NCBI GenBank assembly: GCA_050180485.1
Contig: JBFXED010000019.1
Location: 13,540 to 77,539, forward strand
Direction of reading: 5' to 3'
DNA length: 64,000 bases
Source of the DNA: Alphaproteobacteria bacterium
GTDB taxonomy: Bacteria > Pseudomonadota > Alphaproteobacteria > CADEGL01
The notes under the pieces are model-generated. The model ran no database searches and was not told the origin of the DNA. It was given only the letters and a program-made list of their open reading frames with translations. Shown here in pieces: positions 28,200 through 50,191 of the stretch; within the stretch, counting starts at the first letter, position 1, and each line of letters begins with the position of its first letter. The position numbers were made by a program, and so were the translations under genes.

Positions 28200-28350
28200 C
28201 GGCAGGGAAACAGGCGGAGCCAGATCGGCCGTCGGCGAGTCATGTCCACTGGAGCCTGCGTAAGCAGGTGGGCGCCATGTACCGAGGCCAGGGCCCCGGC
28301 AGAGACAGCTCCCTAGTGGTTTACATTGGCCCCCGGGACGACGATTGCCT
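28200..28350 (-). ncRNA. ssrS: 6S RNA
   Basis: Lies between zapA and ygfA. Contains the alphaproteobacterial-type core ggggccaatgtaaaccactagggagctgtc...cggtacatggcgcccacctg, and its ends pair (ggggcca/tggctcc). Ends approximate. Confidence 0.85.
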
Positions 28351-28381
28351 AACGCGCCGCCCAGCACCGCCCAATGGGAAT

Positions 28382-42434: not shown

Positions 42435-42668
42435 ATGAAGAAAGAAACCCATCCGGACTACCACGAGATCAACGTGGTGATGACCGACGGCACCGCGTTC
42501 AAGACGCGTTCGACCTACGGCAAGCCCGGCGACACGCTGCGCCTGGACATCGACCCGCTGACGCACCCGGCTTGGACCGGCGGCTCGCAGCGCCTGGTCG
42601 ACTCGGGCGGTCAGGTTGCGCGCTTCAATAAGCGCTTCCAGGGCTTCGGCCTCAAGCAGGGCAAGTAA
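42435..42668 (+). CDS. rpmE: 50S ribosomal protein L31 (Zn-free type)
   Basis: [10 protein letters not shown]...STY...LDID..THPAWTG; no CxxC. Confidence 0.96.
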
Positions 42669-42689
42669 GCCCCGCCATCTTCGTTTTTG

Positions 42690-42722
42690 AAACGCCCGGG
42701 ACACTGTCCCGGGCGTTTTTTG
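42690..42722 (+). terminator. Intrinsic terminator after rpmE
   Basis: aaacgcccgggaca-c-tgtcccgggcgttt followed by a T-run. Confidence 0.88.
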
Positions 42723-42730
42723 TTTGCGCT

Positions 42731-47031: not shown

Positions 47032-47820
47032 TCACAGGAAGCTCTTGAGCGCGGCCAACGTGGCGCCGGGCTGCTCGATCATCATCATGTGGCCCGCCTC
47101 GGGCAGGGTCACGGTCTTCGCGTCCGCGATTTGCTTCGCGAGCGCCGCCGCGGCCTTGGGCGGAGTCATGATGTCCGCCGTACCGCACAGGAACAGCGCC
47201 GGGCATTTGATCTTGCCCGCGGCGGCACTGGCGCCCTGATAGGCGTTGCACGCGGCCAAATCGACGCCCAAGGCACCCTTCGGTCCCGTTTCCAGAAGGC
47301 TCAGGCCGCCGCCCAGCATCCATAAGCCCGGCGCCTGATGCCCGCCCAAATGCGCGCGGCGGCCGAAGCCCCAGGACGAGACCAGTTCGGACGCCAGCGT
47401 TTCGCCCGCTTGCGCCGCTTTCAGAAGTTCGGGATGCACCGCCATGGGCGCCGAGATGCCGAGCAGCGCCAGCTTGGCAACACGCTCCGGCACCTGAGCT
47501 GCCGCCTCGAACGCGGCCAGCGCGCCCATGCTGTGACCGACCAACGCGGCCTGGGACGCGCCGGACGCGGCGATCAACTTGCCGAGCCATGCGCCCAGCC
47601 CCTCGATCGAATCGATCGGCGTACCCTCGGAGCGTCCGTGGCCCGGCAGGTCCACCGCCAGGACGGAATAACCGTGATGGGCGAACCAGCGCGCCTGCAA
47701 CGGCCAGACCGTGTGATCCATGCCCGCGCCGTGAACGAAGACCACCGTGGGCTTCGCTGCATCGAACGGGCGTCCGCCCGTCGCCGCGAAAACCGCGCGG
47801 CCGTCGACCCTCAGCTCCAT
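47032..47820 (-). CDS. Alpha/beta hydrolase
   Basis: [27 protein letters not shown]. Confidence 0.9.
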
Positions 47821-47823
47821 CGC

Positions 47824-49119
47824 TCAGCCCTTCTGCGAGGCGCGCAGGGCGCGCGACAGATCGGCGATCAGGTCTTCCGCATCTTCCAGGCCGATTGAAA
47901 GGCGCACCAATTCCTCGCCGATGCCGGCGGCTTTCAGCGCTTCGGCATCCATCTGCTGGTGCGTCGTGGAGGCCGGATGGATGACCAGCGACTTGGCGTC
48001 GCCGACATTGGCCAGATGCGAGAACAGGCGAAGGTTCTCGATGAATTTCCGTCCCGCAGCGCGGCCGCCCTTAATGCCGAAGCTGAACACCGCGCCGCTG
48101 CCCTTCGGCAGCAAGGCCTTGGCGCGCGCATGGTCGGGATGGCTAGCCAGTTCCGGATAGCCGACCCACGCCACCTCGGCTGCCTTGGACAGGTACTCGA
48201 CCACGCGCCGCGTGTTCTCGACGTGGCGCGCCATGCGCACGGGAAGCGTCTCGATTCCCTGCAGAAGGTAGAACGCGTTGGACGGGCTCATGCAGGCGCC
48301 GAAATCGCGCAAGCCCTCGGCGCGCGCGCGCATGATGAAAGCCAAGGGGCCGAACTCCTCGGCGAAGTCGAGGCCGTGATAGCCGGCATAGGGCTCGGTG
48401 AGCGTCGGGAACTTGCCGGACTTCTCCCACGCGAAGCGGCCGCTATCCACGATCACGCCGCCGATGGCGACGCCGTGGCCGCCCAGGAACTTGGTCGCCG
48501 AGTGCATCACCAGATCGACGCCATGTTCGAAGGGTCGGAACAGGTAGGGCGTGGCGAAGGTGTTGTCGATCAGCACCGGCACGCCGGCCGCGTGCGCGAT
48601 CTCGGCCACCGCCGGCAGATCCATGATTTCGAGGCCGGGGTTGCCCAGCGTTTCGCCGAAGACAAGACGCGTCTCGGGCCGGATCGCAGCCTTGAACGCC
48701 GCCGTATCGCGCGGCGGCACGAAGGTCGTGGTGATTCCGAAGCGCGGCAGCGTGTGGGTGAAGAGATTATGGCTGCCGCCGTAGATCGAGGCCGACGAGA
48801 CAATATGTCCGCCTGCCCCCATCAGCGTCGCGATGGCCAGATGCAGCGCCGCCTGGCCGCTGGCCGTGGCGACGGCGCCAACGCCACCTTCGAGCGCGGC
48901 GATGCGTTCTTCCAAAACCGAAACGGTGGGATTGGAGATGCGCGAGTAGATGTGGCCCGCGCGCTCCAGATTGAACAATTCCGCCGCGTGATCCGCGTCC
49001 GGAAAGACATAGGACGTGGTCTGGTAGATGGGGACCGCCCGCGCGCCGGTCACGGGATCCGGCTGCTGGCCCGCATGCAGACTCAACGTGCCGAATTTGA
49101 GGAAATTGGGGTCGACCAT
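47824..49119 (-). CDS. metY: O-acetylhomoserine aminocarboxypropyltransferase (sulfhydrylase)
   Basis: [46 protein letters not shown]. Confidence 0.92.
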
Positions 49120-49198
49120 GGCGCGGCTCCGTGGCCGCGACGCGCGGCCCGGCGCATGAGACACCACGCATTCGGCCCCGGCAAGACCGCGGGCCGGA

Positions 49199-49229
49199 CC
49201 AAAAAAAGAGGCCGCCCGAAGGGGCGGCC
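49199..49229 (-). terminator. Intrinsic terminator in the metY 5' leader
   Basis: Minus strand ggccgccc-cttc-gggcggcc-tc-U7, about 80 nt upstream of the metY ATG. Confidence 0.85.
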
Positions 49230-49240
49230 CAGTCGATAGG

Positions 49241-49322
49241 GGGCGTGAAACGAAGGATTGGATGGCTTGCACCCAAGCAGCAGGCGCTGCGAGGGCTCTT
49301 CTAGAGACCCTTCGTTACGCCC
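49241..49322 (-). ncRNA. Putative structured RNA (four-way junction), riboswitch-like leader or sRNA
   Basis: Closing stem gggcgt-aacgaa/ttcgtt-tc-acgccc encloses three hairpins; terminator follows. Confidence 0.5.
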
Positions 49323-49348
49323 GCGTGACGGAGAAATGAATTTCCTGC

Positions 49349-50137
49349 TCAACCCGCCATGATCCCGCCGTCGATCGACAGGGCGGCGCCGGTGATGGGC
49401 GATGCGGCCTCGCTGCAGAGATAAGCCACGAAGCGGCCGATTTCTTCAGGCGTGATGAAGCGCTTGTTGGGCTGGGTCGAAAGAAGAATTTTCGATGCCT
49501 GCTCGAACGAAACGCCTTCGCGCTGGGCGATGACCTCGACCTGGGGGCGCGACATGCCGGTCAGAACCCAGCCCGGGCAGATCGCGTTGCAGGTGATCTG
49601 GCTTTCGGCAACCTCGAGCGCGACCGCCTTGGTCAGGCCGATCAGGCCGAACTTGGCCGCCGTATAAGCCGTCTTCTTGGGCGATGCCGCCAGGCCGCTG
49701 GCCGAGGCGTTGTTGATGATACGGCCCCAGCCGCGCTTCTTCATGCCCGGCATGGCCGTGCGGATGGCGTGGAACGCCGCGGTCAGGTTAACGGCGAGAA
49801 GCGCATCCCAGCGCTCGACCGGGAATTCCTCGACCAGCGCCACGTGCTGGATGCCGGCGTTGTTGACCAAGATGTCGACGGCGCCGAACGCCTTCTCGGT
49901 GTTGCGCACCATCTGCACCACCTGGTCCTCGTGCGCCAGATCGACCGGATCGTGCAGCACCTTCACGCCGTGCTTGCCCGCGATCTCGGCCTTCAGCTTC
50001 TCGATCTCCTTGGCCTCGCCGAAGCCGGTGATCATCACGTTGCAGCCTTCTTCGGCCAGCACCTTGGCGATGCCCAGCCCCATGCCGCTGGTCGCGCCGG
50101 TGACCAGCGCGGCCTTGCCCTTCAATTTCAGATCCAT
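49349..50137 (-). CDS. bdhA: 3-hydroxybutyrate dehydrogenase-like SDR
   Basis: TGATSGMG, NNAGIQH, YTAAK, ICPGWVLT. Confidence 0.8.
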   Translation of the reverse strand: MDLKLKGKAALVTGATSGMGLGIAKVLAEEGCNVMITGFGEAKEIEKLKAEIAGKHGVKVLHDPVDLAHEDQVVQMVRNTEKAFGAVDILVNNAGIQHVALVEEFPVERWDALLAVNLTAAFHAIRTAMPGMKKRGWGRIINNASASGLAASPKKTAYTAAKFGLIGLTKAVALEVAESQITCNAICPGWVLTGMSRPQVEVIAQREGVSFEQASKILLSTQPNKRFITPEEIGRFVAYLCSEAASPITGAALSIDGGIMAG

Positions 50138-50191
50138 TGATTCCCCCAAGATTGGAATGACTGGGCGAATCCGCCGGAGCGGCGGAAGCGC

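Follow-up and report, generated by a model that had tools for sequence, protein, structure and literature searches.

The element between bdhA and metY

We analysed an RNA element in a 64-kb stretch of alphaproteobacterial DNA (contig JBFXED010000019.1; hereafter the window), where it occupies the spacer between a bdhA-type gene and metY. The element, its features and both flanking genes are on the minus strand. The upstream gene (49349–50149) is a short-chain dehydrogenase/reductase (SDR) of the 3-hydroxybutyrate dehydrogenase type (NCBIfam TIGR01963, 321 bits, cut-off 307; NF009093, 311.8 bits, cut-off 258), with its TGA stop codon at 49351–49349. The downstream gene, metY (47824–49119; NF006004, 792.7 bits, cut-off 636), encodes O-acetylhomoserine aminocarboxypropyltransferase (sulfhydrylase) and starts with the ATG at 49119–49117, 229 nt from the bdhA stop codon. 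An earlier interpretation of this spacer, made by eye and without database searches (the sequence-only reading), had described a closing stem around three hairpins followed by a U7 terminator. For comparison, the surroundings of metY homologues were retrieved from 80 genome loci and 80 metagenome loci, 160 in total (L001, L002 and so on below); in the metagenome scan the closest relative had at most 85% MetY identity.

The positions of the stems, of all three hairpins and of the terminator, on the minus strand between the SDR stop codon and the metY ATG, were confirmed. The element starts 27 nt past the bdhA stop codon, behind an A/U-rich single-stranded linker (GAAATTCATTT, 49334–49344) in which 11 of 11 positions are identical to those of L001. 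It opens with a lineage-specific 5' extension (49305–49322), which contains the closing stem's 5' strand, GGGCGT AACGAAGG (49322–49309). This strand pairs in two parts, GGGCGT with ACGCCC (49322–49317 with 49246–49241) and AACGAAGG with CCTTCGTT (49316–49309 with 49256–49249). Pairing probabilities in the extension are 0.74–1.0; it lies within a 23-nt run identical to L001, and neither it nor the closing stem has a counterpart in L002.

Hairpin 1 (GGG(T)CTCT-AGA-AGAGCCC with one bulged T, 49293–49310) is evolving fast, with about 58% identity between the window and L001, where its lower stem is broken. Hairpin 2 (GCAGC-GCCT-GCTGC, 49277–49290) is retained in L001 and L115, with loop and register altered in L001, and hairpin 3 (TTGGGTG-CAAGC-CATCCAA, 49258–49276) has the same stem in L001, L002 and L115. 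Next come the 3' strand of the closing stem (49256–49241) and, overlapping its end, the stretch TCACGCCCCCTATCGACT (49248–49231). The intrinsic terminator (49201–49230), 11 nt past the closing stem, consists of a stem of nine pairs, eight of them G-C (49230–49209), with a 4-nt loop, and then C and U7 (49207–49201). Its pairs have a probability of at least 0.99 in every transcript context, and it is the only terminator available for bdhA.

The predicted fold of the element has an energy of −61.6 kcal/mol (z = −3.99), which none of 200 shuffled sequences equalled. With z = −3.66 the complementary strand is nearly as stable, so stability alone gives no indication of the strand. The terminator, hairpin 2 and the closing stem are retained in the minimum free energy structure, whereas the interior with all three hairpins is seen in the centroid alone. 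Since L001 does not maintain hairpin 1, conservation does not extend to the exact four-way junction. Only one copy of the element was found in the window (at up to three mismatches), and ARAGORN called no tRNA or transfer-messenger RNA in 49000–49500. A tRNA-like structure, a repetitive extragenic palindrome and a miniature inverted-repeat transposable element were all considered and dropped, there being no cloverleaf and only one copy. An 89-codon open reading frame (ORF) across the region (49083–49352) was ruled out by frame-breaking indels in L001.

From the end of the terminator to the metY ATG there are 82 nt in the window, and these contain a promoter-like block (49153–49185) composed of CTTGCC (49185–49180), an 18-nt spacer and TCTCAT (49161–49156). 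Conservation across the window, L001 and L002 covers both hexamer regions and the length of the spacer, but not its sequence; the 14-mer TGGTGTCTCATGCG (49166–49153), which holds the second hexamer, is identical in all three. This is the pattern of a promoter, and CTTGCC-N18-TCTCAT is a putative promoter of metY. The GGTGTCTCATG block was not widespread among the 160 loci, so its role as a −10 element is put forward only as a proposal. The short 5' untranslated region (UTR) of metY (49117–49149) carries a hairpin, GGCCGCG-CGT-CGCGGCC (49149–49133), and the Shine-Dalgarno sequence GGAG (49130–49127) before the ATG. We also considered an out-of-frame upstream ORF that begins at TCTCATGCG and overlaps the metY start (24 codons; 30 in L002); its peptide is not conserved in L002 and it was rejected. 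In L081 a similar sequence, TGGTGTCCCATGG, is the metY start itself.

A small RNA family linked to metY in relatives

About 30 of the 160 metY loci bear an element resembling a small RNA (sRNA) gene, upstream of metY and on the same strand. It is made up of a TTAA-N7-TTAA box, two covarying hairpins, a single-stranded GCCUCCCUGU core and an intrinsic terminator. The core GCCTCCCTGT is invariant in 27–28 sequences, where it is followed by ..AACT and the terminator, and GCCTCCCTG(T) is likewise invariant in 27–28 relatives. The C-rich, single-stranded GCCUCCCUGU has an anti-Shine-Dalgarno character.

The hairpin 5' of the core keeps its pairing through sequence change (GGATC/GATCC, GGATG/CATCC, CCGGAC/GTCCGG, TGGGA/TCCCA and GGTGTT/AACACC), and in this helix, which corresponds to hairpin 3 of the window, double changes were found at six of six pairs. 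Over the whole family alignment 91% of cells were paired, compared with 64.6% after shuffling and 33–52% when partners were slid, and 18 of 19 pairs had double changes; the alignment had been fitted to the structure, so that the 91% and the 18 of 19 lean towards it. Because MAFFT aligned the stems by sequence, RNAalifold gave either a wrong consensus or none that could be used, and this approach was replaced by a hand-set structure with iterative covariance-model alignment.

The box, TTAA-N7-TTAA(C/G), lies 88–105 nt upstream of the core and often reads TTAACCAT (for example L042:2113–2127 and L101:1157–1171). A perfect TTAA-N7-TTAA is present in 15–16 of 29 members and in 0.2% of background windows. 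It is centred at a −35-like spot relative to a −10-like CTAG/CATAG, and it matches the binding consensus of CtrA, a regulator of the cell cycle. Farther downstream, CTTGAC-type promoters follow the sRNA terminator in L115 and in the loci with long metY leaders. In L017 the element still adjoins bdhA but is separated from metY by a 333-aa ORF, which marks the element as a gene in its own right and not a leader. Altered cores occur within the same sRNA frame in L087 (GCCUUUCUUUAU, 1259–1395) and L115 (GCCUCCCAAAUCCC, 1290–1427), so core turnover is not unique to the lineage of the window. The sRNA of one relative had no BLAST match in plasmids.

Many of the relatives carry a partner for this core in the metY leader. 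At about 26 loci the leader consists of a CTTGAC-type promoter, some 12 nt, the motif AGTTGAACAGGG or AGTT(G/T/A)GACAGGTTGAGGC, a spacer rich in A and, 20–110 nt before the metY ATG, a GC-rich hairpin that often carries a U-tract. The motif, an anti-seed 90–190 nt upstream of metY, is reverse-complementary to the core of the adjacent sRNA and to the nucleotides after it. It was found in L004, L010, L013, L025, L027, L028, L036, L037, L040, L042, L046, L067, L083–L085, L094, L098–L102, L106, L119, L125, L146 and L157 (for example L025:2405–2500 and L157:1389–1500, with AGTTGAACAGGG or AGTTNGACAGGTTGAGGC). The predicted sRNA–leader duplexes have energies of −31 to −38 kcal/mol (z = −3.5 to −6). 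Motif and core also covary, UUCAAC occurring with GUUGAA (L004, L084, L085), UCUAAC with GUUAGA or GUUGGA (L157, L028) and UUAAAC with GUUUGA (L040, L125). Rfam holds no family for the metY leader motif of the relatives. These complementarities suggest an sRNA–leader or sRNA–sponge pair dedicated to metY in the relatives, and the ancestral circuit, in which a CtrA-type promoter would drive an sRNA acting on the metY leader, may be undescribed. The loci with short leaders, including the window, L001 and L002, lack the motif. In the window, the altered core is not significantly complementary to the metY leader (z = −1.0), and neither a complement of that core nor a canonical anti-seed was found elsewhere in the window beyond chance expectation.

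The window element as a diverged family member

We built two covariance models of the family, R1 from 11 relatives with a hand-set structure and R2 from 27 relatives, leaving the window and L001 out of both. When both strands of the 64 kb were searched, the window element was the top match to R1 (22.7 bits, E ~ 2e-4) and to R2 (30.1 bits, E ~ 8e-5; model positions 1–106 on 49304–49198), with the R2 runner-up at 12.2 bits; the L001 element scored 31.6 bits. The second R1 match (42613–42727, plus strand, 11.5 bits) covers the 3' end of a ribosomal protein L31-like ORF and its intrinsic terminator and was discarded as spurious and terminator-driven. A profile hidden Markov model (HMM) of the 3' half also ranked the element first in the window, but at an E-value of 0.05, and a full-length profile HMM of the relatives had no match in the window. 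When the intergenic DNA was compared directly with the 80 genome loci, only L001 and half of L002 aligned; in L002 the BLAST match covered the 3' half of the element (E = 5.6e-4).

The covariance-model alignment equates the GCAGC hairpin (hairpin 2, on R2 helices 1 and 2) with the family's first hairpin and TTGGGTG/CATCCAA (hairpin 3) with its covarying second hairpin, directly 5' of the core; the terminators correspond, and CACGCC-CCCUAU-CGACU takes the place of the family core. The 5' extension falls outside the model. L115 has bdhA upstream, both the GCAGC and the TTGGATG/CATCCAA hairpins, and an intermediate core, GCCTCCCAAATCCC. Judged by these alignments, the window element is homologous to the metY-linked sRNA family.

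The homologous copy is modified in several parts. In the nhmmer and covariance-model alignments, 49231–49256 is the altered counterpart of the family's invariant UUGAC-GCCUCCCUGU-..ACU, with TCACGCCCCCTATCGACT in the position of the seed. Its core is GCCCCCUAUC, altered at two or three positions; compared with the core ACGCCUCCCUGU of BjrC1505, an sRNA discussed below, the window's CACGCC-CCCUAU differs by one deletion or a U>C change, plus G>A. At the 5' end, the linker 49334–49344 is colinear with the relatives' TTAA-N7-TTAA box and reads the degenerate TTGAGCAGGAAATTCA, and the position of the −10 reads CGCGGG, neither being recognisable. The bdhA stop codon falls within the former box, and no E. 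coli-type sigma-70-like site was called in 48900–49700. The promoter box and the −10 thus appear to have eroded in the lineage formed by the window and L001.

What remains of the element is conserved within that lineage. The window and L001 share 72–73% identity at the 4-fold sites of both flanking genes, and the element contains two runs that are identical between them, one of 23 nt (the 5' strand and its flank) and one of 30 nt (from the 3' half of hairpin 3 through the core, including 49231–49256). By chance, identical runs would be expected to reach about 13 nt at most, and one of 30 nt has a probability of about 0.005. The 3' core is thus still constrained by purifying selection.

Comparison with described sRNAs

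BjrC1505 was first described in Bradyrhizobium japonicum. The metY-linked relatives match this family (RF02356) over its full length at 24–43.1 bits (E = 8.5e-5 to 4e-3), under the gathering score of 50. BjrC1505 is an alphaproteobacterial trans-acting sRNA that has been confirmed by Northern blot in Methylorubrum extorquens (bioRxiv 10.1101/2022.01.24.477521). The elements of the relatives align over the whole 140-position model and share with it the sequence ...UGUUUGAC-GCCUCCCUGU-U..ACUU, the preceding hairpin, the GC-rich terminator and a 5' TT(A/T)A-N7-TTAAC region. The window element has the same parts in the same order and position, with the hairpin at 49276–49258 and the terminator at 49230–49201. 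In contrast to BjrC1505, it has the core GCCCCCUAUC, no longer has the box, has gained a 5' extension and one further hairpin, and is embedded directly behind bdhA; its own match reaches 16.5 bits (E = 0.86).

Two other sRNA groups resemble the family in build. In the alphaR8 group (MmgR, SuhB, SisA–D; RF00519) a weak hairpin is followed by a single-stranded, pyrimidine-rich anti-Shine-Dalgarno 10-mer, UUUCCUCCCU, and a Rho-independent terminator (PMC12559287), and the metY-linked family is built in the same way. The Caulobacter sponge RNA CrfA pairs with the anti-Shine-Dalgarno stretch, a situation comparable to that of the anti-seed RNA or leader beside the relatives' sRNAs. MmgR and SuhB control polyhydroxybutyrate metabolism and the window element lies behind a polyhydroxybutyrate-degradation gene, which may be a coincidence. 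Unlike alphaR8, the family has the core GCCUCCCUGU in place of the 10-mer UUUCCUCCCU; the window element lacks the 10-mer and scores 24.2 bits (gathering 41). SorY of Rhodobacter sphaeroides (RF02651; PMC4615379) has a 3' half, ACCUCCCUGUUGGACUU plus terminator, that is close to the GCCUCCCUGUUGAACUU plus terminator of the relatives, whereas its 5' part differs and it has an RpoHI/HII promoter with no TTAA-N7-TTAA box; here the window element scores 25.5 bits (gathering 111). On these sub-threshold matches, the closest described relative of the family is BjrC1505, and the build is like that of alphaR8/MmgR and SorY.

CpxQ and SroC of enterobacteria are sRNAs derived from 3' UTRs and share the terminator of their mRNA. 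The mode proposed for the window element is similar: its RNA would begin directly behind a stop codon and run to the intrinsic terminator of the mRNA, no promoter belonging to the element can be recognised, and a stable stem is preceded by a conserved stretch rich in A and U. UdsC of R. sphaeroides is also a 3'UTR-derived sRNA (PMC9779115). The window element differs from all three in that its 3'UTR state appears to be secondary, a once-independent gene having been captured.

Origin and probable role of the element

On balance, we think it probable, though by no means certain, that the element is a strongly diverged copy of the metY-linked sRNA gene that now most likely serves as the 3' UTR and terminator of bdhA. 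The ancestral promoter box and −10 would have eroded, with the element now 27 nt behind the bdhA stop codon, the otherwise invariant core would have changed to GCCCCCUAUC, and a new 5' extension, pairing just before and into the core, would have given rise to the closing stem. Because it has no promoter of its own and begins so close behind bdhA, the element would be transcribed as part of the bdhA 3' UTR. The hairpin and U7 tract would then end the bdhA mRNA and insulate metY, which would be read from the promoter-like block downstream. A 3' fragment of about 110–125 nt might be released, for example by cleavage at the conserved A/U-rich GAAAUUCAUUU, since the linker at 49334–49344 is a possible RNase E-type processing site. 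Such a fragment, with its changed core, may be a 3'UTR-derived sRNA whose range of targets has changed. A more specific version, in which promoter and leader partner were lost, the RNA was captured as the bdhA 3' UTR, and it has since been selected with the core GCCCCCUAUC and a self-sequestering 5' arm as a functional, re-tuned sRNA, is one that we hold only tentatively and consider the less likely outcome.

Several observations weigh against this interpretation. The window copy is under the curated Rfam thresholds and does not have the invariant core of the family, so that homology rests on our custom models, the E-values of which are rough, and on synteny. The loss of the promoter is read from sequence, and an unrecognised promoter could sit in the perfectly conserved CCGTCACGCGGGCGTAACGAAGG. 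The Rfam model of BjrC1505 takes in the TTAA-box region, and the box may accordingly be transcribed and not be a promoter. As L001 alone shares the architecture of the window, the closing stem is beyond a covariation test. Finally, the block upstream of metY matches the E. coli consensus at 8 of 12 positions, was not called in the E. coli-type scan, and is therefore promoter-like only; the conserved 14-mer within it contains an out-of-frame ATG, and the block could be something else.

The sequence-only reading had proposed a new methionine-, S-adenosylmethionine (SAM)- or sulfur-sensing riboswitch or attenuator of metY, that is, a junction aptamer with the U7 terminator as its platform. In its favour, the element is on the coding strand in front of a gene for methionine biosynthesis, its multi-stem fold has a z-score of −4, the family is persistently linked to metY, and a 7-nt alternative pairing is present, of CGAAGGG (49314–49308) with CCCUUCG of the terminator. 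At the gathering score, however, Rfam gave no SAM-class or other match at the element, 6S RNA being the only family found in the whole window. A permissive scan of 49050–49420 returned three weak sRNA matches only (SorY, suhB/mmgR and BjrC1505), each spanning the terminator, and no riboswitch family up to E = 10. Rfam also found no riboswitch upstream of metY in 27 relatives. The element contains no pseudoknot or aptamer consensus of SAM-I, SAM-II, SAM-V or SAM-SAH; with the leaders of those classes it shares only its location upstream of such a gene, and it has no match to them at any threshold and no expression platform coupled to its fold.

In the partition function, withholding the 3' arm of the terminator left the 5' arm with no upstream partner and the closing stem unchanged, so no antiterminator forms. 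Closing stem and terminator coexist, the latter with pair probabilities of at least 0.99. Possible alternative pairings amount to merely 5–7 bp and are weaker in L001, where the 7-nt one falls to 5 bp, and the 5-bp switch pairing proposed earlier for the 5' GGGCG found no thermodynamic support. Further points against a riboswitch are that the junction is not conserved, hairpin 1 being lost in L001 and the closing stem absent in L002; that the family is built like a promoter-driven sRNA and a gene intervenes between element and metY in L017; and that a conserved promoter-like block separates the terminator from metY. Ligand sensing, or gating of metY through termination, is not supported by these models, and we regard a riboswitch as very improbable.

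The remaining alternatives keep the homology and differ on what became of the gene. A free-standing, trans-acting sRNA of the Hfq type, with an unrecognised promoter of its own in CCGTCACGCGGGCGTAACGAAGG or the end of bdhA and with the altered C-rich stretch as its active part, is unlikely. It would agree with descent from a promoter-bearing sRNA family, with perfect conservation of the 23-nt 5' block and the 30-nt core block in L001, and with the anatomy of hairpins, a single-stranded stretch and a U7 terminator. However, both the box and the −10-like CTAG/CATAG are degenerate at the colinear positions, the scan of 48900–49700 gave no sigma-70-like site, the element starts 27 nt past a stop codon, and the 5' block is also explained by its pairing with the core region. 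The sRNA alternative mentioned in the sequence-only reading is upheld in a modified form, as we read the element as a promoter-less 3'UTR derivative with an altered core. Somewhat less likely again is a decaying relic, in which only the terminator matters, for bdhA, and the rest is a dying sRNA gene that no longer has a function. Loss of the box, mutation of the invariant core, absence of the complementary metY leader motif and erosion of hairpin 1 would all fit such decay, yet the identical runs of 23 and 30 nt lie outside the terminator and persist despite a difference of about 27% at 4-fold sites.

Compared with these alternatives, capture as the bdhA 3' UTR with its terminator is the reading that we prefer, and it would change the annotation of the locus. 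A false riboswitch lead is removed, and the element would be entered as a bdhA 3' UTR plus terminator derived from a BjrC1505-like sRNA, with metY under its own promoter. The earlier description of an unrecognised RNA of a new class is too strong, given the promoter-like block downstream and the tie to BjrC1505, although that tie is below threshold and runs through intermediates. Among the findings that the sequence-only reading itself named as speaking against it were a metY promoter beyond the terminator, which would make the hairpin simply the SDR terminator, and a hit to a described Rfam family. In substance both of these were found, the one as the promoter-like block that the window has in common with L001 and L002, the other as the sub-threshold relation to BjrC1505. 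Its suspicion of an RNA regulator of methionine synthesis is echoed in the relatives, by a different mechanism.

More broadly, the sRNA family is widely linked to metY outside Rhizobiales and carries a CtrA-type box. If confirmed, the pairing in the relatives would represent a dedicated sRNA–leader or sRNA–sponge pair for methionine synthesis in lineages without SAM riboswitches on metY, and the lineage of the window would document the dismantling of that circuit and the re-purposing of its RNA.

Other features of the window and of related loci

Directly after metY the window has a gene for a 262-aa alpha/beta-fold hydrolase (47035–47820, minus strand), which is found at about 75 of the 80 genome loci with 46–90% identity and falls below every NCBIfam family cut-off. 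The 6S/SsrS RNA gene lies at 28213–28370 on the minus strand and matches Rfam RF00013 over its full length (70.8 bits, gathering 46.4). At two related loci, ROSE thermosensors (RF00435, gathering 45) occur 3' of the metY locus, at L042:5104–5191 (minus strand, 50.3 bits) and L028:5125–5218 (minus strand, 45.7 bits).

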